Below, piece by piece: positions 1 through 12,458 of a stretch of 13,149 nt of DNA. Source of the stretch: Candidatus Iainarchaeum sp. (GTDB taxonomy: Archaea; Iainarchaeota; Iainarchaeia; Iainarchaeales; GCA-2688035); assembly GCA_028713935.1 (NCBI GenBank), contig JAQTNI010000026.1, positions 5,626 to 18,774 of the forward strand. The letters run 5' to 3'. The notes under the pieces were generated by a model. That model was not told where the DNA came from and made no database searches. It worked only from the letters and a program-made list of their open reading frames with translations. Positions within the stretch are counted from its first letter, which is position 1, and each line of letters starts with the position of its first letter. Both the position numbers and the translations under genes were made by a program.

Positions 1-585
1 TATTACTCCGTCAACAACGTATTCTTCAACTCCGTATTTTCCAAACCTGTTTGTGCCTTCCTGTATCTCTGATGTCATCAGGGAAGTTGCACCGCTTCTC
101 ATAAGCACATAGCTGAGTTTTAAGATTGCTTTTCTCACTTCGCTGGAGTTTTCAAAATTGAATCCCAAAGCAGGAATTGAGTCTATTACAACTCTTTTTG
201 CGCCTATTCTTTTTATTACGCGCATTATTTCGAGCAGAAGCTTGTCAACATCATAGCCTGTTACTGGCAATGCATATTCTTCCTGTGATGGCATGCCTAT
301 TTTTGCAATTGAACCGTCAATTATCTGGATTTTGTTTGCTTCTTCCAGTTTTTTAAGGTCCCAGCCGAATCTCATTACATCTTCCCTTATCAGGTCAGGC
401 CTTTCGTCAAGAGTCACATAAACTCCCGGTTCTCCATAGTCTTTTGCGCCGCTGTAAATATATTGCATGCAAAAAATTGTTTTTCCTGTTCCGCATGCGC
501 CGCTGAGGAGAATGCTTCTTCCTTCTGGAAACCCGCCTTCCATTAATTCGTCCAAGCCGTAAATCCCGGTTTTTATCCTTTTCAT
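1..585 (-). CDS. KaiC-like RecA-superfamily ATPase, N-terminal part only (C-terminus runs off the window start)
   Basis: Not in the ORF track because there is no stop in the window. The reverse complement from ATG (585-583) stays open for 195 codons to base 1: MKRIKTGIYGLDELMEGGFPEGRSILLSGACGTGKTIFCMQYIYSGAKDYGEPGVYVTLDERPDLIREDVMRFGWDLKKLEE...AKRVVIDSIPAL... It has Walker A GACGTGKT and a Walker B-like RVVIDS. The GIxGLDELxxGG opening is typical of archaeal KaiC-family ATPases. Confidence 0.8.
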   Translation of the reverse strand, partial: MKRIKTGIYGLDELMEGGFPEGRSILLSGACGTGKTIFCMQYIYSGAKDYGEPGVYVTLDERPDLIREDVMRFGWDLKKLEEANKIQIIDGSIAKIGMPSQEEYALPVTGYDVDKLLLEIMRVIKRIGAKRVVIDSIPALGFNFENSSEVRKAILKLSYVLMRSGATSLMTSEIQEGTNRFGKYGVEEYVVDGVI

Positions 586-634: not shown

Positions 635-2503
635 TTAAATTCTTTCCGCTTCGAATACCTGCGGAAGTTTTCTTATTTTTTGCATTATTTTTTCCAGTTG
701 TTTTGCCTGCTGGATTCTGACATTGAACAATGCATTCACTGCCCTGCTTTTGTCCTCTTTTGCGCTTGTTGAAACAAGGCTTGCTCCCGAAGAAGAAATA
801 ATGTTTAAAATTCCCGGCAAAAGGCTCGAGGATTCCCTTGCCTTTACCTGTATTTTTACTGCAAAAAATTTTCCAGACCCCATTTCCCAGTCCATTTGCA
901 CAATTTTTTCTTTTCCCGCTTTCAGGATATTTTCGCAGTCCGCCTTGTGCGCAATGATTTTTCTTTTTGTGGTTTTCAATCCGATTATCTCTTCGCCCGG
1001 CAGCGGGTTGCAGCATTTTGCGATTTTTACATTGCTGTTTCCAGTTGTGACATTCTTTCCCGGCTTTGCTGTTTTTTTTATTGCAGGCAACTTCAGCCCG
1101 AGTTTTTGCCGTATTTTTGCCTTTGCTTTTTCAGATTTTGCAAATCCAAGCCAGTCCCTTTTTACCTGCACAGTTTGGCTTGGAATTATTTCTATTGTGT
1201 CAGCATTTTCAATTTTATAGTCAAGCGGGACTATTTTTCCATTGGCCTTGGCTTTCTGGCATTTTAAGCCAAGGTCAGAGTGGATTGCAAAAGCAAAGTC
1301 AACAGGAGTTGATTTTCCCGGCAGGACAACAACCTTGTTTTTCGGGGTTAATGCAAAAATTTTGTCTTCCCCAAAATCTATTTTCAATGAATCCACAAAT
1401 TTGCTTGTTTTTTTCTTTGCCCTGAACCCCTCAATTATTGCCTGGCCCCAGCCCAGTTTTGCGTCAAAATACCTGTTTGCAGGGTACTCTTTGTAAGCCC
1501 AGTGTGAGGCAAGGCCAGTTTCATTGTCCCAGTGCATTTCCATTGTTCTAATCTGTATTTCCACTGGCTTTTTTTGCCAGACAATCACTGTATGAAGCCC
1601 CCTGTAATTGTTTTCCTTCGGATTAATTATATAATCATCAAATTCCTGCGGCACAATTGTGTAATTTGAATGGATAACCCCGAGAATTTCATAGCATTGC
1701 TTTATTGAATCGCAAATTAGCCTTATGCCACGCAAATCCGGCAGTTCCTCGAATTTTTTTCCCAGATTCATTTTTTTGTAAATTGAAAAAAAATGCTTTG
1801 GCCTGCCTGAAATGCTTGCTTTTATTTTTTCTTTTTTTAAAAGGCAGCTTATTTCTTCCGCAATAATCCTGATTTCTTTTTCCCTCGTCCCCCTTTGCTG
1901 CCTGACAAGGGCTTTTATGTTGCCAAATTCTTTTGGGTTTAGTGCCTTGAAACAGGAATCTTCAAGCTGCCATTTCATTTGGTGAAGCCCAAGCTTGTCG
2001 CAGATTGGCACGAAAATTGCAAGGCAGCGCTTTGCAAAATTTTCTTTTGCGTTTTCATCAAGAACAGCATCGCTGCCTAGCGAGTCAAAAGCAGAGGCAA
2101 GTATAATCAGCACTGCCCTGATATCGCGTGCAACAGCCAGGATTACATTTGAAAGGAGCTCGTCTGAAAAATTCTGGAAATTTTTTTCCTCTATCTGGAA
2201 TGCCTTTGCGCATTCTTCCACAATTTCGGCTATTTCTTCGCCAAAAAAAGAATTTATTTCTTCTCTCTTTGTGTTTCCTGCGAGAAAAGTGTCGTGCAGC
2301 AATGCAGAGGCAATTGTGGCGTCGTCTGTGCCTGTCTGTGCCATTAGCAAGGCAACATTGAGAATGTGCTGTATTGCAGGCGAATCTTTTTTTGCAGCCT
2401 GTTTTTCCAGTGCAAACTCAAATGCTTTTTCCAAAAGCTTCCTGTCCGCTTTTGGATTGAATTTTCTTGCTTCTAGGAGGATATCTTCGAAATTTTTTTG
2501 CAT
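635..2503 (-). CDS. Long RelA/SpoT homologue (RSH): HD-like domain, (p)ppGpp synthetase, TGS, Zn-finger and ACT/RRM domains. The hydrolase motifs appear degenerate (RelA-like).
   Basis: 622-aa ORF. HD-like N-terminus with H46 and H70-D71 (ALLHDTF). Synthetase motifs: SGRPKHFFSIYKKM, DLRGIRLI, EFDDY, YRGLHTVI, VEIQIRTMEMHWDNETGLASHWAYKE. TGS: IFALTPKNKVVVLPGKSTPVDFAFAIHSDLG...ANGKIVPLDYKIENADTIEII. Zn-finger/CC: CCNPLPGEEIIG...IIAHKADCENI. C-terminal ACT/RRM-like: FAVKIQVKARESSSLLPGILNIISSSGASLVS. Confidence 0.9.
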   Translation of the reverse strand: MQKNFEDILLEARKFNPKADRKLLEKAFEFALEKQAAKKDSPAIQHILNVALLMAQTGTDDATIASALLHDTFLAGNTKREEINSFFGEEIAEIVEECAKAFQIEEKNFQNFSDELLSNVILAVARDIRAVLIILASAFDSLGSDAVLDENAKENFAKRCLAIFVPICDKLGLHQMKWQLEDSCFKALNPKEFGNIKALVRQQRGTREKEIRIIAEEISCLLKKEKIKASISGRPKHFFSIYKKMNLGKKFEELPDLRGIRLICDSIKQCYEILGVIHSNYTIVPQEFDDYIINPKENNYRGLHTVIVWQKKPVEIQIRTMEMHWDNETGLASHWAYKEYPANRYFDAKLGWGQAIIEGFRAKKKTSKFVDSLKIDFGEDKIFALTPKNKVVVLPGKSTPVDFAFAIHSDLGLKCQKAKANGKIVPLDYKIENADTIEIIPSQTVQVKRDWLGFAKSEKAKAKIRQKLGLKLPAIKKTAKPGKNVTTGNSNVKIAKCCNPLPGEEIIGLKTTKRKIIAHKADCENILKAGKEKIVQMDWEMGSGKFFAVKIQVKARESSSLLPGILNIISSSGASLVSTSAKEDKSRAVNALFNVRIQQAKQLEKIMQKIRKLPQVFEAERI

Positions 2504-2528
2504 GAATAAAAAACCCTCTGGCGGAATA

Positions 2529-2536
2529 ATTTAAAT
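2529..2536. promoter_or_regulatory. Palindromic TATA-like box (ATTTAAAT) in the divergent RSH/tpiA intergenic region
   Basis: The perfect palindrome atttaaat lies 26 nt from the RSH ATG (2503, minus strand) and 21 nt from the tpiA ATG (2557, plus strand). This spacing fits archaeal TATA boxes driving leaderless or short-leader mRNAs in both directions. Similar TATA-to-ATG spacing recurs at other genes in the window. Confidence 0.35.
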
Positions 2537-2556
2537 ACTTCTCGCAGCTATTTTAA

Positions 2557-3288
2557 ATGAAAGGTGCGCTTTTTCCTGGTGTTTTTTTGAAGCTGAAACT
2601 CCCTGTTTTGTTCATTAATTTCAAGGCTTATGAAGAAGCCACTGGCAAAAAAGCCCTGGCTCTCGCAAAAAAAGCAGAGGCAATTGCAAAAAAATCCAGG
2701 GCTTCAATTGTTTTGGTTGTGCAGGCAACTGACATTTTTTTTCTTTCAAAAAAATCTTTTCTTCCCCTGTTTGCGCAGCATGTTGACCCGATTGAATATG
2801 GCAAGCACTCTGGCTGGATTTCTCCCGGCTCTGTAAAACAGGCAGGCGCAATTGGAACTGTTTTGAATCACGCGGAGCACAAGCTGGAAAATCCTGTCCT
2901 TGAAAAGGCAATTGCCCTTGCAAAGGGCGCAGGCTTGCTTGTAATGGCCTGTGCAGAGAACCTTGAAAGGGCAAGGCAGATTGCTTCTTTTTTCTCAAAG
3001 CCGGATTTTATTGCAATTGAGCCGCCAGAACTTATTTCCCGCGAAGATGTTTCAGTCAGCACTGCAAGGCCTGGGCTTATTTCAGATTCTGTGAATGCAA
3101 TAAAGCAAATTGCCCCCGGGATAACTGTAATCACGGGCGCAGGAATATTCAATTCCACTGATGTTTCAAAGGCAATTGAGCTTGGCACTTCAGGGGTTTT
3201 TGTTGCAAATAAAATTGTAAAAGCCGCTGACCAAAAAAAAGCAATTCTTGATTTGGTTTCAGGTTTAAAAACTGATAAGAAGAATTAA
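2557..3288 (+). CDS. tpiA: Triosephosphate isomerase, archaeal type
   Basis: LFINFKAYEEATGKKALALAKKAE (catalytic Lys in NFKAY), GTVLNHAEHKL (catalytic His) and FIAIEPPELIS (catalytic Glu) match the archaeal short TIM layout. The N-terminus is ~17 aa longer than usual, so TTG at 2587 (in frame) is an alternative start. Confidence 0.9.
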   Translation: MKGALFPGVFLKLKLPVLFINFKAYEEATGKKALALAKKAEAIAKKSRASIVLVVQATDIFFLSKKSFLPLFAQHVDPIEYGKHSGWISPGSVKQAGAIGTVLNHAEHKLENPVLEKAIALAKGAGLLVMACAENLERARQIASFFSKPDFIAIEPPELISREDVSVSTARPGLISDSVNAIKQIAPGITVITGAGIFNSTDVSKAIELGTSGVFVANKIVKAADQKKAILDLVSGLKTDKKN

Positions 3289-3308: not shown

Positions 3309-3336
3309 AATTTAAAAAATTTTGAGGGTGTTTTGC

Positions 3337-4464
3337 ATGGTTGTTGCTTCCGATTTAATGGAAAAGGATTTTTTGAGAATTGAAAAGGACTCTGTTTTGT
3401 CGCAGGCCATTGGAAAAATGGTTTCTTCAAAAAAGCCTGCTGCGCTTGTTTTTGACAACAATGCTTTTGCAGGCCTGGTTTCAATAAAAATCCTTGCCAG
3501 GAAAACAATTTCAAATCCCTCTGAAACAAAAATCGGCTCTCTTGCGGAATCAATGCCAGTGCTTAAAGAAACAATGCCTATTGAAAAAATCGCTGACCTT
3601 CTTTTTTCAAGCGACGCAAGGGTTTTGCCGGTAGTGAAAAACAGCGCTGTTATTGGCGTGGTTTCCCTGGTTTCAGTTGCAAAGGCAATCGCCTCAATGC
3701 CTGAAATAAAAAAAATTCCCCTTTCAAAAATTGTCAGGAATGCGGTTGTCCTGACTGAAACAGATTCTGTTGGCAGGGCAATTGCATTGATGAAAGAAAC
3801 AAATTCCCTCAGCGCCGCTGTTGTTGATAAAAATTCAAGGCTGATTGGAGTGGTTTCCCTGGAAGAAATCGTGAAAAAATTCCTGCTTTTGCAGAAAGAA
3901 AAATACCGTGCCTCCAAATATTCAAGCGGCGGAACTTCAGGCTCAATAAACCCTGAAAAAGATTCCATGGCAAGCACTCTTGCCCGCAACGAAATGTCAG
4001 AAAATTTTGTTTCAATTGGGCCGAACGAAACAGTCCTGAGGGCTGCTTCTCTCATGGCTTCAAGCAATGCCAGTGAAATAATTGCAGAGGAAAATTCAAG
4101 GGTTCTTGGAATTGTTTCCGCAAAAAACATTCTGCCGTTGCTTCAGTCCCTGAAGCCAGCAAAAAACATTCAGATTGCAAAAATGCCGGTTGTAGATGAA
4201 ATTGACAAGGCAGAACTAATCGGGTTTATTGACAAGGTTTATGACAAAATTGCAAGGATTGTTCCAGGAGAATTTTCCCTGCATGTGCATTTTAAGTCCC
4301 ATGAAAAAGGCGGTGCAAGGAAAAAGCACACTGTTCACTTAAAACTGGTGACGCCAAAAAAAACAATTGTTTCAAAAGCAGTTGACTGGAAGCTCTTGAT
4401 TGCAGTTAAAAATGCAGCGGACTCCCTTGAAAGGGAAACAATTGGCTTTGTAAAAAGAAAATAG
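3337..4464 (+). CDS. Four tandem CBS domains (two Bateman modules) fused to a C-terminal HPF/RaiA (S30AE)-like domain
   Basis: I prefer ATG 3337 (MVVASDLMEKDF...) over the track's TTG 3322. The SD-like gagggtg lies at 3324-3330. There are four CBS-like repeats, each ending in h-G-h-V-S: AFAGLVSIKIL, VIGVVSLVSV, LIGVVSLEEI, VLGIVSAKNI. The last ~97 aa (about 4168-4461) are IQIAKMPVVDEIDKAELIGFIDKVYDKIARIVPGEFSLHVHFKSHEKGGARKKHTVHLKLVTPKKTIVSKAVDWKLLIAVKNAADSLERETIGFVKRK. By eye this aligns with the beta-alpha-beta-beta-beta-alpha pattern of E. coli HPF/YfiA (...DMYAAIDGLIDKLARQLTKHKDK). Confidence 0.8.
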   Translation: MVVASDLMEKDFLRIEKDSVLSQAIGKMVSSKKPAALVFDNNAFAGLVSIKILARKTISNPSETKIGSLAESMPVLKETMPIEKIADLLFSSDARVLPVVKNSAVIGVVSLVSVAKAIASMPEIKKIPLSKIVRNAVVLTETDSVGRAIALMKETNSLSAAVVDKNSRLIGVVSLEEIVKKFLLLQKEKYRASKYSSGGTSGSINPEKDSMASTLARNEMSENFVSIGPNETVLRAASLMASSNASEIIAEENSRVLGIVSAKNILPLLQSLKPAKNIQIAKMPVVDEIDKAELIGFIDKVYDKIARIVPGEFSLHVHFKSHEKGGARKKHTVHLKLVTPKKTIVSKAVDWKLLIAVKNAADSLERETIGFVKRK

Positions 4465-4470
4465 TTTTTT

Positions 4471-4710
4471 TTATCTTTTTTTCTTTTTTTTCTTTGCTTT
4501 TGAAGCCTTTTTTGGCCTTGCTTTTGCCTTCTGCTTTGATTTTTTGGCAGGTTTTTTCTTTGGCATTCTTGAAGGCTTTTTGCTGCGAACCTTTTTCCTG
4601 CGCTCCCTCATTGTGGCAGGCATGAACAGCTCCAAATCAGTGCTTTTTTCTTCGCGGAGCTCTCTTCGCATCTCATCAATAATGTCCTTGACTGTTTTCC
4701 GCTCTTCCAT
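4471..4710 (-). CDS. Small basic protein with an acidic/helical N-terminus and a poly-Lys tail (hypothetical; possibly nucleic-acid binding)
   Basis: 79-aa ORF: MEERKTVKDIIDEMRRELREEKSTDLELFMPATMRERRKKVRSKKPSRMPKKKPAKKSKQKAKARPKKASKAKKKKKKR. A TATA-like ttttatata on the minus strand (about 4753-4762) lies upstream. The low-complexity tail makes the coding status uncertain. Confidence 0.4.
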   Translation of the reverse strand: MEERKTVKDIIDEMRRELREEKSTDLELFMPATMRERRKKVRSKKPSRMPKKKPAKKSKQKAKARPKKASKAKKKKKKR

Positions 4711-5504: not shown

Positions 5505-6632
5505 TTAATATTTATTTAATATTTTTTTTAATTCTTTTAAAAATTCCCTGGTATCTGCAAAATAGTTAGGGTATGCTTTTTCAAGTTCTTTGGCGGTATC
5601 TACCCCAACAAGAACCACATCGTATTGCTTTTGTCCGTGATATTTTTTTTCAGCATTATTATACGCTTCAACTGCTTCTTTTTCTTCGCCCATTTTATAA
5701 GTTATAATTTTAAGTTCAGATGCAGTTTCTTCTGCAACATTTAGCTCCAATAAAAAGTATTGTGTCTGTTTCCTTTTATTTTTTTTTTCCTTTGACCCCT
5801 CTTTTGTGTCCCAATTTTTCATCGCATTTATTCCTCTTGTCCAGCTTTCAAGCCTATGCACTACATTTAATTCAGCTTCTTTCTTCTTGATTGCTAGATA
5901 AAGCTCTTTTTCATTATTTGGGGTGTTTGGGACAATGGGTAAGTTTTCGTTTTTAGCAAAAGCAGAACTTACGAGCTTAAAAAATTCTTTCCAATCCTCG
6001 CTTCCCTCGTTTGATTTTATTGCCTGCTTAGTAATAAACCCTGCTATTTCCACTGCTGTTGCCCATTGGTGTTGCAATTTAGACCTAAATTGAAGTTCAA
6101 TTAGCAGTCCATTATTAAAGATTTTTTTCCCTTTTTTATCACTATAATATTCATAAACAAGATGATAACTTCTGTAGCCATCCCTTTTTGGTTTTGAGAT
6201 ATAATCATTTGTTTTTACTTGTCTATGTTTTAAATTCACTTTTAGGTTGTAATACTGTTCATATAATCGCTTTGTTTCCATAACCGTTGGCATAATTGCC
6301 CGGCATCCGCCAATATCCTGCATATCGTAGAGTGTTATGGCATGTTTACGACCAGAATACTGCTTTGTAAGTTTGTAAAGAATAGCTGGAACACGTTTTA
6401 ATCTCTGCGCAGTTAATGCGTTTTTGTTTACCTCATTAGCTTTTGATTTTAGTCTTATTTTGAATACGTGCATCGGGTAACCGTGTGCTGCTCTCCAATT
6501 GTCCATAATTTTCATTGCTTCTTCCTTTTGTTCTTGAGAACTTGCAGGGTTTATTAGAACATTCCCGGCAGCAGTTATTTGTTCTTTGCTATATTCGGGT
6601 TTTATCCAATTCATGTTATACTTTCTGCGCAT
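5505..6632 (-). CDS. Stand-alone RelA/SpoT (RSH synthetase-fold) domain protein with a ~140-aa C-terminal extension. Candidate toxSAS, with CapRel-like fused architecture.
   Basis: 375-aa ORF. Synthetase-fold motifs: AQRLKRVPAILYKL, DMQDIGGCRAI, YISKPKRDGYRSYHLVYEY, LIELQFRSKLQHQWATAVEIAGF. There is no HD, TGS or ACT domain. The C-terminal ~140 aa (…YFLLELNVAEETASELKIITYKMGEEKEAVEAYNNAEKKYHGQKQYDVVLVGVDTAKELEKAYPNYFADTREFL…) is unassigned. A TATA-like tttaaata (minus strand, 6645-6638) is centred ~27 nt upstream of the second ATG (6614, MNWIKPEY...), which may be the true leaderless start. Confidence 0.85.
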   Translation of the reverse strand: MRRKYNMNWIKPEYSKEQITAAGNVLINPASSQEQKEEAMKIMDNWRAAHGYPMHVFKIRLKSKANEVNKNALTAQRLKRVPAILYKLTKQYSGRKHAITLYDMQDIGGCRAIMPTVMETKRLYEQYYNLKVNLKHRQVKTNDYISKPKRDGYRSYHLVYEYYSDKKGKKIFNNGLLIELQFRSKLQHQWATAVEIAGFITKQAIKSNEGSEDWKEFFKLVSSAFAKNENLPIVPNTPNNEKELYLAIKKKEAELNVVHRLESWTRGINAMKNWDTKEGSKEKKNKRKQTQYFLLELNVAEETASELKIITYKMGEEKEAVEAYNNAEKKYHGQKQYDVVLVGVDTAKELEKAYPNYFADTREFLKELKKILNKY

Positions 6633-6802: not shown

Positions 6803-7101
6803 TTGGTCTGGAAACAGTGATTGAAAAAGGGTCACTGAAAAATGGACTTTGCTTCCTGAAAAAAGTTTAATCATTGCTTTTTCTCGCTTCCGGCCCTTCA
6901 AAGCATTTTTTGTTAAAGCCACCGTTGCTTTCTTCCGAACCTGGCGGGTTTCACTCCAGCAAAAAATCTCTGAAGACAGAAGGTCACTGTCCAAGCAATG
7001 GCTCTTTTCAGGGAACCAAGCCTCTTTTCCAGCATCAGCCCCGGCATAAAGCAGGTTTCCGGTTACAAGGCACTGCTGCCGCCCCAGCCTGACCCAGACA
7101 A
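6803..7101 (-). ncRNA. Signal recognition particle RNA (archaeal 7S/SRP RNA, ~300 nt); ends approximate
   Basis: A GC-richer patch with no convincing ORF. The minus strand reads GAGUGAAACCCGCCAGGUUCGGAAGAAAGCAACGGUGGC (about 6957-6918). This matches the universally conserved SRP helix-8 motif (…GUGAAC…CCAGGUC-GGAA-…GAGCA…) with a GGAA tetraloop. An Alu-domain-like UGUAACCGGAAAC lies near the 5' end (about 7067-7055). Nested long-range complements consistent with helices 1 and 5 are cauugcuu (7000-6993) with aagcaaug (6879-6872), ccugaaaa with uuuucagg, ggaaa with uuucc, and gucu with agac near the ends. Confidence 0.8.
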
Positions 7102-7487: not shown

Positions 7488-8441
7488 TCAGCTTTCCACG
7501 TCTTCTATTCCGTGCTCTGTTACCCTGAAAATTGCTTCCCCGTCAGGCAATGAAGGCGAATCAACGAGTTTTGCGACTCTTTTGTCTTCCTTGCTTTTGC
7601 GCAGGTAAATTCTTGTTTTGCTGTTATGCGCAACAATGTCCCCTCCAATCGGAGTTGTTGGGTCGCCAAACAAAATTCCCGGGTTTTGCATTACCTGGTT
7701 TGTAACTAAAACAGCAATGTTGTTCATTTCCGCAACTTTCATCAGTGCGTGCATGTGCTTGTTCAGTTTTTGCTGCCTGTCAGCCAACTGGCCCCTTCCA
7801 ATAAATTCAGACCTGAATTGCGCAGTAAGGGAATCAACTATTATCAATTTTATTCCTTTTTCCTTTATTATTTCATCGGCTTTTTCCGCAAGCAATATCT
7901 GGTGGTCTGAATTGTAAGCCCTTGCCACTAAAATGTTTTTCAAAACTTCTTCCTGGTTTAATCCAAGGTGTTCTGCAATTGCAATTATTCTTTCCGGCCT
8001 GAAGGAATTTTCCGCGTCAATCCAGAGGCATGGCCCGTTAAGCCCTCCTTTTTCAACTGGCAATTGGACTGTTACTGCTGCCTGAAAGCACACCTGTGTT
8101 TTGGCGCTTGCAAATTTTCCATAAATTTCTGTTATGCTTCCAGTTTCAATGCCGCCGCCAATCATTGAGTCAACGTCTTTGCTTCCTGTAGTAATTTTTC
8201 CAACAAGCTTTCTTCTTTCGGCAATTTTGTCTGCTGTTTCAAAGCCCATTTCAAGGGAGTCCCTTGCAGCCCTGATTGCTTTTGTTGCAGTTGCCTCTCC
8301 AAGGCCTGCTGCTTCAACAAGCTCCGCAGGGGAAGCAATTGCAATGCTTTCAACTGTTTTATAGCCTGCAGCCATTAGTTTTTCTGCTGCCTGTGTTCCA
8401 ATGCCAGGCAAATCCTCTATTTCCTTTATCTGTTTCCCCAT
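7488..8441 (-). CDS. radA: DNA repair and recombination protein RadA (archaeal Rad51/RecA homologue)
   Basis: N-terminal HhH domain: IEDLPGIGTQAAEKLMAAGYKTVESIAIASPAELVEAAGLGEATATKAI. RecA core: LIIVDSLTAQFRSEFIGRGQLADRQQKLNKHMHAL, VLVTNQV, PIGGDIVAHNSKTRIYLRKSKEDKRVAKLVDSPSLPDGEAIFRVTEHGI. I prefer ATG 8441 (MGKQIKEIEDLPGIG), which is preceded by a strong SD GGAGG (complement of 8449-8453, 7-nt spacer). The track's ATG 8522 would add 27 hydrophobic residues. Confidence 0.95.
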   Translation of the reverse strand: MGKQIKEIEDLPGIGTQAAEKLMAAGYKTVESIAIASPAELVEAAGLGEATATKAIRAARDSLEMGFETADKIAERRKLVGKITTGSKDVDSMIGGGIETGSITEIYGKFASAKTQVCFQAAVTVQLPVEKGGLNGPCLWIDAENSFRPERIIAIAEHLGLNQEEVLKNILVARAYNSDHQILLAEKADEIIKEKGIKLIIVDSLTAQFRSEFIGRGQLADRQQKLNKHMHALMKVAEMNNIAVLVTNQVMQNPGILFGDPTTPIGGDIVAHNSKTRIYLRKSKEDKRVAKLVDSPSLPDGEAIFRVTEHGIEDVES

Positions 8442-8643
8442 AACAATTCCTCCTTGGGCCAGCCATTTGAAGCAATTAATTTGGGAAATAATTGCCACTT
8501 GGGCTGCCAATTCAATAAGCATAATGATTGGATGCTTTTAAATAGTTTTTAGAGTGCACTTCCGCTATTCCGTCTCTTAAGAAGAATCAATATATTTTTA
8601 TTTAATTATGTGCATTAAATAATTATAAAAAAAAGGTGTTTTT

Positions 8644-9237
8644 TTGGCGCGAACCATTACTTTGTCTGTTTCTGATAATACTTTTGAATTGATGCGGAAG
8701 CATCCCGAAATCAATTATTCTGAACTGGCCAGGCAGAGGATTAACGGGTATCTGGCTTCCCTTTCCGAGAAAAGGGTTGTTTCTTTCGATTTTTTAGTCC
8801 TGAAGGATTTGATTTTTGCTCCGGAAAAAATTGTTGAAATTCATAATAGGATTGAGAAGAACCACAAGATGATGCGCACTCTTTCTTGGGTTGAATCTGT
8901 TTTTGACCTGGATTTGTTTGACAGCCTGTCAAAGTTTTTGCACGAGTTTGCAAGGGTTCATCCTTTTGAAGATGGCAATAAAAGAGCTTCTTTTGTCTGC
9001 GTTGATGCCTTTTTGCGGCTGAATTTTATGAAGCTTAGAATTAACCAGTCTTCAAAAAAAACTACTGATGATGAAAAGTTTTTTTGGCAGAACGCAAACA
9101 TGCAGAAGCCGCTTGATGAAATAAGGATTTTCCTCAAAAAGCATGTTGTTGAATCCCGAAGGCCAAAAAGCGTTGAGGCAGCTGTTTTTGATTCAATCAG
9201 CGAAAACAAAATTCTGCTGGAACGCCTTGCCCTTTAA
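8644..9237 (+). CDS. Fic/Doc-family protein (Doc-type HxFxDGNKR motif) with an N-terminal ribbon-helix-helix-like segment
   Basis: The Doc-type motif HPFEDGNKR lies at 8959-8985 (residues 106-114), followed by ASFVCVDAFLRLNF. The N-terminus MARTITLSVSDNTFELMRKHPEINYSELARQRINGYL has the strand-helix-helix pattern of CopG/Arc/MetJ RHH domains. The start is TTG 8644, 5 nt after the SD-like aggtg (8634-8638). The first in-frame ATG would delete the RHH strand. Confidence 0.8.
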   Translation: MARTITLSVSDNTFELMRKHPEINYSELARQRINGYLASLSEKRVVSFDFLVLKDLIFAPEKIVEIHNRIEKNHKMMRTLSWVESVFDLDLFDSLSKFLHEFARVHPFEDGNKRASFVCVDAFLRLNFMKLRINQSSKKTTDDEKFFWQNANMQKPLDEIRIFLKKHVVESRRPKSVEAAVFDSISENKILLERLAL

Positions 9238-9635
9238 TGCTTTCTAATCAGGACAACAAACAGTTCATCCAAAGTCAATCCTTGTTTTGACAGGAATTCC
9301 TTGATTTCTTTTTCAGTGTTTTCCCTGTCTGCAGTCAAATATTGGTGTGTTGCAACAATGTTTTTTTGTTCCTTGAGCATTTTTGTCTGGCACGAGTCTG
9401 TCCATTCGTCAATAATAATTTTGTTTTGATTGTTTTTTGCTATTGCACTGGAAAGCATTGTTTTTTCGGAAAACGGCAGTCCAAAAATAACTATATTTTT
9501 TGTTTGCACTGCAAGCTCTGAAGCAATAACACAAAGAAGCCTATTATTTTCAATCTCCAAAGTTTTAACAATCCTGAAACCAAAACTTTTTTCCATTTCA
9601 AAATTCTTGAAAAACAGGCTTAAATGCATTTTCAA
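9234..9635 (-). CDS. Hypothetical protein (133 aa; possible start at ATG 9596)
   Basis: An ORF with typical local codon composition. Its 3' end overlaps the Doc-like gene's stop by 4 nt in convergent orientation. It contains NIVIFGLPFSEKTMLSSAIAK...KIIIDEW. I recognise no confident family. Confidence 0.5.
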   Translation of the reverse strand: MKMHLSLFFKNFEMEKSFGFRIVKTLEIENNRLLCVIASELAVQTKNIVIFGLPFSEKTMLSSAIAKNNQNKIIIDEWTDSCQTKMLKEQKNIVATHQYLTADRENTEKEIKEFLSKQGLTLDELFVVLIRKH

Positions 9636-9697
9636 AGCAAATTTCCGCTAATCAGTGGGTTTAAATTATTGAAAGATTAAATAATTTCCGGATTGCA

Positions 9698-10093
9698 ATG
9701 CAAAAAAAGCCAATGAGAAGGCCAGAGCTTAAGAGGCGTGTAGCAAGTTTGAGGCGAGCAGCTTCTGAAAGAGCCTTTGCTGAATTTATACTCAAATTTC
9801 CAAATCCTGAAGTTGCACAGCGTCACTATGACAGAATTCGCCAAGCATTGGCTGCAAAAACAGTTGATTGGGAAAAGGTTAAGAACTCAATTAATTATTG
9901 GGACAGAGTCAGAACTGAAACTTTGGAACTTAACAAAAAATTTGGCAAGGCAATCAGAAGCGGTTTGCGTTTAGGGATGCAACCACCTTCTATCATGGCT
10001 GAACAATTGCAAAGCATACAAGAAATGCAGCAGCAAGCTTTTTCAGACCTTGCCAGGATAAAAGCCCGCAGAAAAATGGAATTAGGAAAATAA
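9698..10093 (+). CDS. Hypothetical basic helical protein (131 aa)
   Basis: ATG-initiated ORF filling the gap between flanking genes: MQKKPMRRPELKRRVASLRRAASERAFAEF...QEMQQQAFSDLARIKARRKMELGK. It is R/Q/A-rich and predicted all-helical by eye. No recognisable motif. Confidence 0.5.
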   Translation: MQKKPMRRPELKRRVASLRRAASERAFAEFILKFPNPEVAQRHYDRIRQALAAKTVDWEKVKNSINYWDRVRTETLELNKKFGKAIRSGLRLGMQPPSIMAEQLQSIQEMQQQAFSDLARIKARRKMELGK

Positions 10094-11594: not shown

Positions 11595-12458
11595 TTGCGA
11601 AAATTTTTAAGAAGAGTAATTAACCCATTAGGGCAAAAAAAGCCGCAACCGCAACTGCAAGCCCCGGCGTCAACCAATATGGCCAGGTCCATTCCTGACC
11701 TTGATGTTGGCCAGCTTTACTCTGACCTACTCCAAGCCTATCAAAATCCAAAAGCCGGCAGTGAGCTTCGGAAAAAATGGGCTAATCAATTCCCAATGCA
11801 CCTTGGCATTCAAACAGCTTTTCGTGATATTGGCGATTATGCCATGGATCCGCGCAAGCATGCAAATGTAGTGCAGTCAGATAACCCCAATTATATGCAC
11901 GAAGTTGTCGCATCACGGGTTAGAATGGTTCAAGAACAGGATGCTAAAATCAGGCAAGGCTTATTGATTGGCGCCAGGAATAAAAGAATGCGCAAGACGG
12001 GTTTTTGGCAGTTGAAAAAAGAAGGTCAGGCGCGAGCACGGAACGAAAGGACAGTTAAAATTGAATTGGGCAGATTCCTTAAAACAGTGGGCCCTGAGTT
12101 AAAACCCCGAGTTCAGCATATTCAAAAACTGTTGTTTTCAAATTTTCAATCAGCATGGATTCGAAGAGCCTTGGTCAGCATGGCTCTTGAAGGGCCAAGC
12201 CCCCAAAACATTTCTGAGGCAGCTAAAGCATCGACACACACCCTTGGCAAAGACGAACTTTCAGATACTGCCTGGTTAATTAATTCAATGGCAGTCGAAA
12301 TTGCGGCAAGAGAAAAAAAAGCGATTCCAGACAAAGAAATATCACTGGCATTCAATGCACAATATCAAAGATTCCTCATTCTAAGGCAAAAAATGACACG
12401 CGAAGAATACTTGCGACAACAAGGCGGCCAGGTTATTAGCCAAAAACTTCTTGAGTAA
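11595..12458 (+). CDS. Hypothetical protein (287 aa), compositionally atypical ORFan
   Basis: A long ORF starting at TTG 11595, 5 nt after ggtg (11586-11589). The first in-frame ATG gives MARSIPDLDV... The protein is Q/R/A/M/W/H-rich and the DNA is visibly GC-richer than the neighbouring housekeeping genes. No motif recognised. Confidence 0.6.
   Translation: MRKFLRRVINPLGQKKPQPQLQAPASTNMARSIPDLDVGQLYSDLLQAYQNPKAGSELRKKWANQFPMHLGIQTAFRDIGDYAMDPRKHANVVQSDNPNYMHEVVASRVRMVQEQDAKIRQGLLIGARNKRMRKTGFWQLKKEGQARARNERTVKIELGRFLKTVGPELKPRVQHIQKLLFSNFQSAWIRRALVSMALEGPSPQNISEAAKASTHTLGKDELSDTAWLINSMAVEIAAREKKAIPDKEISLAFNAQYQRFLILRQKMTREEYLRQQGGQVISQKLLE

Follow-up and report, generated by a model that had tools for sequence, protein, structure and literature searches.

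The window analyzed here is the whole 13,149-nucleotide stretch of a Candidatus Iainarchaeum sp. contig. It encodes a long RelA/SpoT homologue (RSH, used below for this protein) between two archaeal-type genes, with the following features.

1..585, minus strand: KaiC-like P-loop ATPase, 5' part, running off the window; co-directional with the RSH gene, 49 nt past its stop
635..2503, minus strand: RSH gene, long RelA/SpoT homologue; ATG start, 622 aa (Pfam, NCBIfam and PDB matches)
641..871, minus strand: ACT/RRM domain, aa 545-621 (ACT_4 match, AlphaFold model)
884..1030, minus strand: zinc-finger/ribosome-intersubunit domain (ZFD), aa 492-540 (CCHC alignment; precomputed PF28438 RelA_RIS)
1031..1171, minus strand: short spacer in place of the Helical/AH domain, aa 445-491 (alignment break, spacer length, model)
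1184..1357, minus strand: TGS domain, aa 383-440 (Pfam TGS; H408 corresponds to H432 of E. coli RelA)
1487..1807, minus strand: (p)ppGpp synthetase (SYNTH) domain, aa 233-339 (RelA_SpoT match, residue alignment)
1985..2410, minus strand: pseudo-hydrolase with HD_4 fold, aa 32-173 (HD_4 match and motif alignment)
2504..2556, no strand: divergent intergenic region between RSH and TIM, 53 bp (direct sequence reading)
2557..3288, plus strand: archaeal-type triosephosphate isomerase (TIM), divergent from RSH and a conserved neighbor (NF003302, 228.7 bits)

The 622-aa RSH was a 100% match to an NCBI entry annotated as [quoted passage not shown]. The profile search proposed in the preliminary description recovered all four expected Pfam domains: HD_4 (aa 32-173; 81.2 bits, cut-off 27.2), RelA_SpoT (aa 233-339; 121.5 bits), TGS (aa 383-440; 58.9 bits), and ACT_4 (aa 545-621; 53.3 bits). 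The NCBIfam model TIGR00691 (spoT_relA) scored 518.6 bits, above its cut-off of 499.2, placing RSH in the long RSH superfamily. By the RelA equivalog NF008124 (366.7 bits; cut-off 728), RSH is not a RelA orthologue, and with 375 bits it also stayed below the cut-off of 947 for the SpoT equivalog NF008303. The closest relatives among solved structures were M. smegmatis Rel (2e-110) and E. coli RelA (1e-99). Bacterial long RSHs comprise six domains, namely HD, SYNTH, TGS, Helical, ZFD, and RRM/ACT (PMC7797070). The ORF had been credited with the full domain set of these bacterial proteins; an HD fold, SYNTH, TGS, the zinc finger, and ACT/RRM were indeed present, but the Helical (AH) domain was missing. 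A small alarmone synthetase (SAS) was rejected as the identity of this multi-domain protein, since an SAS is a single SYNTH domain without HD or C-terminal domains.

The window contains a second RelA_SpoT gene at 5505-6632. It is a full-length CapRel homologue, that is, a CapRel-type defence toxin, and was accordingly rejected as an SAS partner of the long RSH.

Catalytic domains and C-terminal region

Alignment of the synthetase domain showed that R234, K236, K244, D256, R261, Y300, H304, E315, Q317, and R319 were intact, and the four motifs listed in the preliminary description, GRPK(H), DLRGIR, YRGLH, and EIQIRT, were all found. These ten residues were invariant in a 33-sequence family alignment and present in 42 of the 43 representatives (50% identity level) of RSHs lacking the Helical domain (AH-less RSHs). 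SYNTH (identity 0.59) and TGS (0.66) were the best conserved domains within the clade, and HD was the least conserved of the catalytic region (0.37). The acidic EFDD at the charge-reversal motif had been associated with monofunctional RelA. The motif is present, but it proved to have no value as a marker of monofunctionality and was rejected as such: it is uninformative here because it is not a clade feature, the position reading KFTD, QFTD, RFAD, HFDD, and others in clade relatives, and because it also occurs beside an intact hydrolase in archaeal relatives (P0049, P0095, and P0104-6).

The hydrolase half retained H46, H70, and D71, three of the four Mn ligands. The catalytic ED dyad was replaced by L74-A75 (HDTFLAG vs HDVVEDT), and the D, H, and N of ADRLHN, the first of which is the fourth Mn ligand, were replaced by S137, D140, and S141 (ILASAFDSLGS vs KLADRLHNMRT). 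The RxSGxPY phosphate-binding motif was also missing. Motif alignment with characterized Rel and RelA thus bore out the earlier reading of these positions, and the resulting signature, HHD-LA-S-DS as opposed to HHD-ED-D-HN, is not that of a bifunctional Rel/SpoT. HD_4 scored 81 bits in RSH compared with 160-190 bits in hydrolase-intact relatives, and Pfam PF01966 matched such relatives and a bacterial control but not RSH. The AlphaFold model of the HD-fold domain was nevertheless helical, with pLDDT values of 80-92. Degeneracy was common to the whole Iainarchaeota clade (approximately 40 members), in which the ED, D, and H/N positions drift freely. H46 and H70 were retained in most degenerate members, and some members lacked even the HD pair. 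No substitute acidic pair was conserved in the hydrolase domain, the invariant alignment columns there being structural.

The C-terminal region combined conserved sensing residues with the loss of one domain. [quoted passage not shown] The zinc-finger residues C497, C498, H519, and C523 corresponded to RelA C612, C613, H634, and C638, and this CCHC set was found in all 43 representatives and was invariant in the 33-sequence alignment. Between TGS and the zinc finger, approximately 90 aa corresponding to the Helical domain were missing. The alignment with M. smegmatis Rel broke at this point (RSH 468/492 vs Rel 547/661), and the spacer measured 49-58 aa in the Iainarchaeota clade compared with 136-194 aa in bacterial Rel. 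Pfam RelA_AH_RIS gave no match in RSH even at E<=1 (bacterial control, 61.9 bits), and in the AlphaFold model the spacer formed just two short helices, with disorder at 469-484 (pLDDT<50). In Rel/RelA, the A-site tRNA is contacted by both the Helical domain and TGS (PMC7797070).

Genomic neighborhood and family ancestry

Each component of the archaeal context listed in the preliminary description was confirmed: RadA, RPA, and the archaeal-type TIM on the contig (Pfam, NCBIfam), the KaiC-like ATPase, and an archaeal SRP RNA at 6825-7099 (123.8 bits). The intergenic region contains an A/T-rich TTTAAATA at 2530-2537, a possible candidate for an archaeal TATA-type promoter element common to both genes; the TIM ATG is approximately 20 nt away, and the RSH ATG approximately 27-34 nt.

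The comparison of gene neighborhoods rests on loci of relatives, an exact search of the contig index with the window protein having given no match. The order RPA-RadA-CBS-TIM-RSH-KaiC was shared by at least five independent assemblies (L001-L005), and TIM-RSH-KaiC also occurred in L087. The TIM/RSH and RSH/KaiC junctions recurred in assemblies from ENA, NCBI, and JGI with RSH identities of 76%, 62%, 43%, and 41%, and contigs with this synteny reached 364 kb. In all Iainarchaeota loci examined, the KaiC-like ATPase lay directly downstream of RSH, co-directional and 47-87 nt away. RSH is vertically inherited, its identities and those of its neighbors declining in parallel across loci. Relative to L003, identity was 76% for RSH, 98% for KaiC, and 88% for RadA. 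GC, GC3, and codon usage of RSH matched the archaeal neighbors, and codon usage was nearest to that of core archaeal genes. The recurring neighborhood and the neighbor-like composition and codon usage therefore remove the concern of a chimera: apart from the bacterial affinity of the RSH family, nothing speaks for an assembly chimera or for contaminating bacterial DNA fused to archaeal sequence, and the probability of either is negligible. Domain matches, archaeal neighbors, and recurring synteny together show that the long RSH belongs to a genuine archaeal genome, as originally proposed.

Trees were constructed by the distance-based neighbor-joining (NJ) method with AH columns removed and 200 bootstraps. 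The clade of degenerate (pseudo-HD) sequences was supported by 187/200 replicates, and its grouping with HD-intact short forms by 197/200. In the representative-set tree, 42 AH-less representatives fell into a single clade; 28 of them, all degenerate, made up an inner group, and basal members of this archaeal family had an intact hydrolase. The HD-intact AH-less members adjoin archaeal genes, including those for eIF2-gamma, S6e, aIF5B, TFS, and Cdc6. An origin of the 640-aa hydrolase-intact short forms in CPR/Patescibacteria was rejected, their genomic contexts being archaeal, and P0179, a short-spacer bacterial RSH with bL27 and sigma-70 neighbors, fell outside the archaeal clade. When the family alignment was used to scan GTDB genomes, bacterial Rel dominated the output, and one Iainarchaeum locus (L005) was among the matches listed. 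The matches closest to the family by score were Bacillota Rel, so that the bacterial donor currently appears Bacillota-like, going by best matches.

Predicted function and alternative readings

A synthetase-only enzyme, as predicted in the preliminary description, is also our best prediction from the residue states, because the hydrolase catalytic residues are lost while those of the synthetase are intact. We consider it rather likely that RSH is a long-resident, vertically inherited, bacterial-derived gene of Iainarchaeota (Diapherotrites, DPANN) encoding a monofunctional ATP:GTP/GDP 3'-pyrophosphotransferase, a (p)ppGpp synthetase, probably gated by its C-terminal region. The ancestor would have been a bacterial-derived long RSH of the AH-less archaeal family with the hydrolase intact, as in basal members; on the Iainarchaeota branch, the hydrolase residues would have decayed with the fold kept, in convergence with proteobacterial RelA. 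Control of synthesis would probably fall to the C-terminal TGS, zinc-finger, and ACT/RRM domains, with uncharged tRNA as the most likely predicted trigger: its free 3' CCA end would be read through the TGS histidine, possibly with RSH bound to the archaeal ribosome. A RelA-like ribosome mechanism cannot be taken for granted because the Helical domain is missing, and ribosome-dependent activation as in bacteria is thus uncertain. The window contained no HD_4-only, MazG, or Nudix gene, and no alarmone hydrolase was detected there or beside the RSH genes of related loci, among which a MazG gene occurred only in L003. By bacterial rules, a synthetase without an opposing hydrolase would be expected to be toxic, which counts against the synthetase-only reading.

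More tentatively, Iainarchaeota might run an alarmone stringent response in which the AH-less, synthetase-only RSH reads uncharged tRNA on or off the ribosome, (p)ppGpp targets archaeal proteins, for instance GTPases and purine enzymes, and a predicted non-RSH enzyme clears the alarmone. If true, Archaea would have their first (p)ppGpp signalling system, and synthesis would have been separated from hydrolysis in a RelA-like manner a further, independent time.

A less likely alternative to the main reading is that RSH is an active but ribosome-independent synthetase whose C-terminal region serves as an autoinhibitory or ligand-binding module, the candidate ligands being an amino acid on ACT/RRM, free tRNA, or a partner such as the adjacent KaiC-like ATPase. 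The absence of the Helical domain throughout the archaeal family and the close, co-directional KaiC-like gene at every Iainarchaeota locus are consistent with such a protein. However, the TGS histidine and the ZFD CCHC set, which are key to ribosome and tRNA sensing in bacteria, are nearly invariant. The KaiC link, moreover, is inseparable from a general conservation of gene order that extends to RadA, RPA, TIM, and LysRS, and it is absent from the HD-intact archaeal loci.

A catalytically silent relic or pseudo-enzyme with a structural or RNA-binding role is improbable. In its favor are the lack of any report of (p)ppGpp from archaea, the failure to find a hydrolase partner in the window or beside related RSH genes, and the faster evolution of RSH than of some neighbors, as in the comparison with L003. 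Against this, the ORF is intact in all loci, and the ten synthetase residues are kept in 42 of 43 diverged representatives while the hydrolase residues drift, a pattern that argues for selection on synthesis. Slightly less probable still is a bifunctional RSH that hydrolyzes through a non-canonical active site. The three surviving Mn ligands, and the persistence of both histidines in most clade members, would fit this possibility, but RSH no longer has the ED dyad, the fourth ligand, or the RxSGxPY and HN motifs for substrate binding. The domain shows no conserved acidic pair that could stand in for the dyad, and the HD pair itself is missing from some clade members.

Relation to earlier reports and known systems

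The statement in the preliminary description that archaea are essentially devoid of long RSHs reflects a 2011 survey and no longer holds, given the large AH-less archaeal family found here and the main text of Li et al. (2021, mSystems, PMC8407392), which reports RelA/SpoT, with an inferred bacterial origin, for 69% of Diapherotrites and 42% of Woesearchaeota as well as for further DPANN. These are the same genes at the level of annotation, mentioned in one sentence of that main text, which refers to supplementary figure S34 and gives no domain architecture, hydrolase state, or synteny. A 2023 review of archaeal second messengers describes (p)ppGpp as undescribed in archaea and without an important role (PMC10249747). 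The AH-less archaeal family was absent from the RSH surveys checked, the supplements of a 2019 RSH survey preprint contained no archaeal names, and our literature search returned no dedicated study of archaeal long RSHs. RSH is not a first of its kind, since DPANN RelA/SpoT were briefly reported in 2021; public MAGs also already carry annotations of such genes, and the importance of the present finding is tempered to that extent. Its interest lies in a whole DPANN lineage that keeps an RSH with an intact synthetase site at one genomic position, over divergence to approximately 40% identity. RSH offers a clonable test case of whether any archaeon makes alarmones, and the family is a natural experiment on what the Helical and hydrolase domains contribute to long-RSH regulation.

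Within the family, the nearest comparison is with the uncharacterized hydrolase-intact AH-less RSHs of other archaea (e.g., P0095, P0137, and P0298, labeled "[archaeon]"; 628-656 aa). They share the truncated architecture, with a TGS-ZFD spacer of 61-66 aa, as well as the NJ clade, archaeal contexts, and, in some cases, EFDD. Unlike RSH, they keep HHD-ED-D-HN and match Pfam HD, and are therefore predicted to be bifunctional. They are also nearer to Bacillota Rel, with which they share 54-58% identity across the N-terminal 74% of the query, and they lack the TIM/KaiC synteny.

Among characterized enzymes, RSH was most similar to the bifunctional Rel of Bacillota/Actinomycetota (B. subtilis, S. 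equisimilis, and M. smegmatis), and its identity to Clostridia Rel was 38-41%. The order of the retained domains is the same, and the N-terminal half matched the fold of T. thermophilus Rel (TM 0.82). Bifunctional Rel differs in possessing the hydrolase residues and the Helical domain of approximately 90 aa, and at 715-735 aa, it is approximately 100 aa longer than RSH.

E. coli RelA (monofunctional, [hS]) resembles RSH in its pseudo-hydrolase and intact-looking synthetase, in the TGS histidine, ZFD CCHC set, and ACT/RRM domain, and, for the RSH of this window specifically, in EFDD. It differs in retaining the Helical domain and in having lost the H...HD residues (reading LLFPL) that RSH keeps. 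The two are not orthologues, RSH grouping with the archaeal AH-less RSHs, and the loss of the hydrolase is an independent event. Because RSH falls below the NF008124 cut-off and is nested in an AH-less archaeal family with hydrolase-intact basal members, it is RelA-like by convergence only.

Domain architecture of the RelA/SpoT homologue

The long RelA/SpoT homologue (RSH) lies on the minus strand, and its Pfam domains scored far over their cut-offs.

635..2503 (-), ORF of the long RSH, ATG start, 622 aa
aa 32-173, HD_4 domain of the RSH
aa 233-339, RelA_SpoT domain of the RSH
aa 383-440, TGS domain of the RSH
aa 545-621, ACT_4 domain of the RSH

The protein passed NCBIfam TIGR00691 (spoT_relA; 518.6 bits, cut-off 499.2) and reached neither the RelA (366.7 vs 728 needed) nor the SpoT (375.4 vs 947 needed) equivalog model of NCBIfam. 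Its closest solved relatives were M. smegmatis Rel (2e-110), E. coli RelA (1e-99), and B. subtilis Rel. The AlphaFold model (pLDDT 79, pTM 0.67) matched RelA, SpoT, and Rel structures, and its N-terminal half superposed on T. thermophilus Rel with a TM of 0.82. NCBI holds an identical protein named 'MAG: HD domain-containing protein [Candidatus ainarchaeum sp.]'. Every motif quoted in the preliminary description was present in the sequence.

Long RSHs comprise six domains, HD, SYNTH, TGS, Helical, ZFD, and RRM/ACT (PMC7797070). The RSH had been credited with every domain of a bacterial long RSH; the Helical domain (AH), however, is absent. The alignment with M. smegmatis Rel breaks at query 468-492 (Rel 547-661), and Pfam RelA_AH_RIS gave no match in the RSH even at E<=1, with a Carboxydocella Rel control at 61.9 bits. 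The TGS-to-ZFD spacer measured 49-58 aa in the Iainarchaeota clade, 62-65 aa in AH-less archaeal RSHs with an intact hydrolase (hydrolase-intact short forms), and 136-194 aa in bacterial Rel. In the RSH model, this region contained only two short helices (451-454 and 458-467) and a disordered linker (469-484).

A bacterial long RSH (P0179, 672 aa; 8001-10019 of its locus, L090) with bL27 and sigma-70 neighbours and an intact hydrolase had a TGS-ZFD spacer of 75 aa, shortened independently; Helical shortening is therefore not unique to archaea.

Catalytic residues and proposed mechanism

Alignment with Rel enzymes showed that H46 and H70-D71 of the hydrolase half were retained, and that the RxSGxPY motif ahead of the first histidine was not found in the RSH. 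The catalytic ED dyad was replaced with L74-A75 (HDTFLAG vs HDVVEDT), and the D, H, and N of KLADRLHNMRT with S137, D140, and S141. Pfam HD (PF01966) did not match the RSH, and HD_4 scored 81 bits compared with 160-190 in relatives with intact motifs. The degenerate hydrolase of the preliminary description was thereby borne out and extended clade-wide: residue loss was common to all of the approximately 40 close family members, in which the hydrolase positions varied from sequence to sequence, some lacking even the HD pair. Among the 43 full-length representatives with the short architecture (50% identity clusters, best 150 from the library), 10 carried the full HHD-ED-D-HN signature and 33 were degenerate. 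The histidines equivalent to RelSeq H53 and H77 persisted in most degenerate members while the other catalytic residues drifted ('HH' opens 28 of 33 degenerate signatures, or 29 counting the RSH itself); their role may be structural, or they may belong to a residual site for metal or nucleotide.

The synthetase residues of the RSH were intact. All ten synthetase residues examined were kept in 42 of the 43 short-architecture representatives, as was the TGS histidine (42/43), and the zinc-finger CCHC was kept in all 43. H408 aligned gap-free to E. coli RelA H432, and C497, C498, H519, and C523 aligned to RelA C612, C613, H634, and C638. Mean pairwise identity within the clade was 0.37 for HD, 0.59 for SYNTH, 0.66 for TGS, 0.55 for ZFD, and 0.38 for ACT. 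Such a pattern is as would be expected if synthesis and C-terminal control, and not hydrolysis, were under selection.

The prediction of a synthetase-only enzyme is well supported by these residue states across the clade, but not by the EFDD motif that had been adduced for it. EFDD is present in the RSH; at this position, clade members carry KFTD, QFTD, RFAD, HFDD, KFHD, and others, and EFDD also occurs in the hydrolase-intact archaeal relatives P0049, P0095, and P0104-6. The motif is therefore no evidence for monofunctionality here.

We propose that the RSH would make (p)ppGpp and that its C-terminal region would gate synthesis in response to uncharged tRNA. In E. coli RelA, H432 stacks on the tRNA 3' CCA end, and H432E abolishes activation (PMC7797070). 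The loss of the Helical domain bears on this mechanism, because TGS and Helical jointly contact deacylated A-site tRNA in Rel/RelA (PMC7797070). At 47 residues, the spacer could in principle still reach from TGS to ZFD on the ribosome, with putative ZFD/RRM docking; control off the ribosome or by a partner is a serious rival.

As for product removal, the window contained no SAH, MazG, or Nudix gene. Among the relatives, only the Iainarchaeota locus L003, from the closest relative, had a MazG-family nucleotide pyrophosphohydrolase gene (3462-4202), adjoining RPA. Bacterial MazG enzymes can degrade (p)ppGpp, and by analogy the L003 protein is a candidate alarmone-clearing enzyme, although not a conserved one.

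Genomic context and inheritance

Candidatus Iainarchaeum is placed in Iainarchaeota of the DPANN kingdom Nanobdellati, and the archaeal context claimed for the RSH was confirmed by the following features.

6825-7099, archaeal SRP RNA (123.8 bits)
1-585 (-), KaiC-like P-loop ATPase, 5' part (246 aa in relatives; PF06745)
in the window, RadA (NF003301, 470 bits)
in the window, archaeal-type TIM (NF003302, 228.7 bits)
in the window, RPA-type ssDNA-binding protein
in the window, CBS-domain protein

The arrangement TIM<-|->RSH->KaiC-like was common to relatives with 76%, 62%, 43%, and 41% RSH identity, from independent ENA, NCBI, and JGI assemblies with contigs of up to 181 and 364 kb. RadA, RPA, class-I LysRS, SerRS, Trm56, and TFIIE-alpha genes also lay near the RSH in these loci. 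In tblastn comparisons, RSH identity dropped in parallel with that of the neighbouring genes, from KaiC 98%, RadA 88%, RPA 83%, and RSH 76% in L003 to RadA 68%, KaiC 66%, TIM 58%, RSH 41%, and RPA 40% in L005, another Iainarchaeota locus. With a GC of 0.408 and GC3 of 0.409, the RSH was, of all window genes, nearest to pooled core archaeal genes in GC, GC3, and codon usage. Recurring synteny, parallel identities, and matching composition therefore exclude a chimera or recent transfer, and the RSH has been vertically inherited for long in this lineage.

The KaiC-like ATPase gene is co-directional with the RSH and 49 nt downstream in the window, and 47-87 nt downstream in every Iainarchaeota locus (L001-L005, L087); the ATPase is far better conserved than the RSH (98% vs 76% identity to L003). 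The two may be functionally linked, but such a link is inseparable from general synteny, as the wider gene order is also conserved.

In neighbor-joining trees built from alignments without the Helical-domain columns, the Iainarchaeota clade with the degenerate hydrolase had a bootstrap of 187/200, and 197/200 together with the hydrolase-intact short forms. The representative set yielded one clade of 42 AH-less members with an inner group (n=28), all degenerate; P0179 fell outside the archaeal AH-less clade. The hydrolase-intact short forms belong to archaea as well: P0095 adjoins eIF2-gamma, ribosomal protein S6e, and aIF5B, P0042 an archaeal-type ProRS and an MJ0538-family gene, and P0137 TFS and two Cdc6/Orc1 genes. 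A search with P0095 found at least 75 AH-less clusters of 628-656 aa, some named '[archaeon]', on contigs of up to 841 kb. Among bacterial sequences, Rel proteins from thermophilic Clostridia and from Halanaerobiales came nearest to the P0095-type forms, with 54-58% identity across the N-terminal three quarters. In the simplest history, a Bacillota-like Rel would have entered DPANN archaea, lost its Helical domain, and spread or been inherited in AH-less form; hydrolase function would then have disappeared from the Iainarchaeota branch, and probably from a few further branches. The order of steps is provisional, since the trees are distance-based. A separate RelA_SpoT-domain gene (270 aa; 10088-10900 of L091) lies 2.5 kb from P0137, between ribosomal protein S2 and a Cdc6/Orc1 gene; a long RSH and an SAS may coexist in some archaea.

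The window also encodes the following genes.

5505-6632 (-), second RelA_SpoT-domain gene, 375 aa, CapRel homologue
8644-9237 (+), Fic/DOC-family protein (Pfam Fic 37.5 bits; TIGR01550 under cut-off; weak PADLOC PDC-S04)
4471-4710 (-), small, extremely lysine-rich ORF, 79 aa, KKKKKKR tail

The first matched the fused toxin-antitoxin CapRel (PDB 7ztb, 373 aa) over its full length (E 2.7e-43; 11-369 vs 12-367) and PADLOC PDC-S33 (E 1.9e-111), with a conserved C-terminal AYPNYF motif; it is of the anti-virus tRNA-pyrophosphokinase type and no housekeeping SAS. Its GC (0.341) and GC3 (0.287) are lower than in the neighbouring genes and suggest that it was acquired recently; L003 carries a 54%-identical CapRel-type copy at a different position. 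The Fic/DOC gene lies between RadA and RPA and is 91% identical to an L003 gene that also has an RHH_12 match; a toxin or defence role is possible. The lysine-rich ORF received no family assignment; ORFs of similar size adjoin the CBS gene in both L001 (79 aa) and L003 (84 aa). Pfam, NCBIfam, and PADLOC gave no match for ORFs 11595-12458 (+, 287 aa), 9698-10093 (+, 131 aa), and 3312-4130 (-, 272 aa); the last runs antisense to the CBS gene, with which it overlaps, and is likely to be spurious. The place of the 287-aa ORF beside RPA is taken in relatives by an MBL-fold (Lactamase_B) gene.

Comparison with known RSHs

Archaea lacked long RSHs in a 2011 RSH survey (PMC3153485). The main text of a 2019 survey preprint has archaea only under methods, and its supplementary files, distribution tables S1 and S2 aside, contain no archaeal names. 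(p)ppGpp had still not been described in archaea according to a 2023 review (PMC10249747). The long RSH in this archaeal genome is real, but it is not unprecedented, as had been supposed: Li et al. 2021 (PMC8407392) had recorded RelA/SpoT in genomes of Diapherotrites (69.0%), Woesearchaeota (41.7%), Pacearchaeota (21.3%), and Nanoarchaeota (19.0%), and inferred that the DPANN genes came from bacteria. Their main text gives this a single sentence, with a pointer to figure S34, and does not cover architecture or catalytic state. We found no paper on the missing Helical domain, hydrolase decay, or synteny in the searchable literature. Thus, the presence of the gene in DPANN archaea is already known, whereas that literature appears to contain no description of the AH-less, convergently RelA-like variant fixed at a single genomic position. 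Rather than a first sighting, the RSH is a testable entry point to archaeal alarmone signalling.
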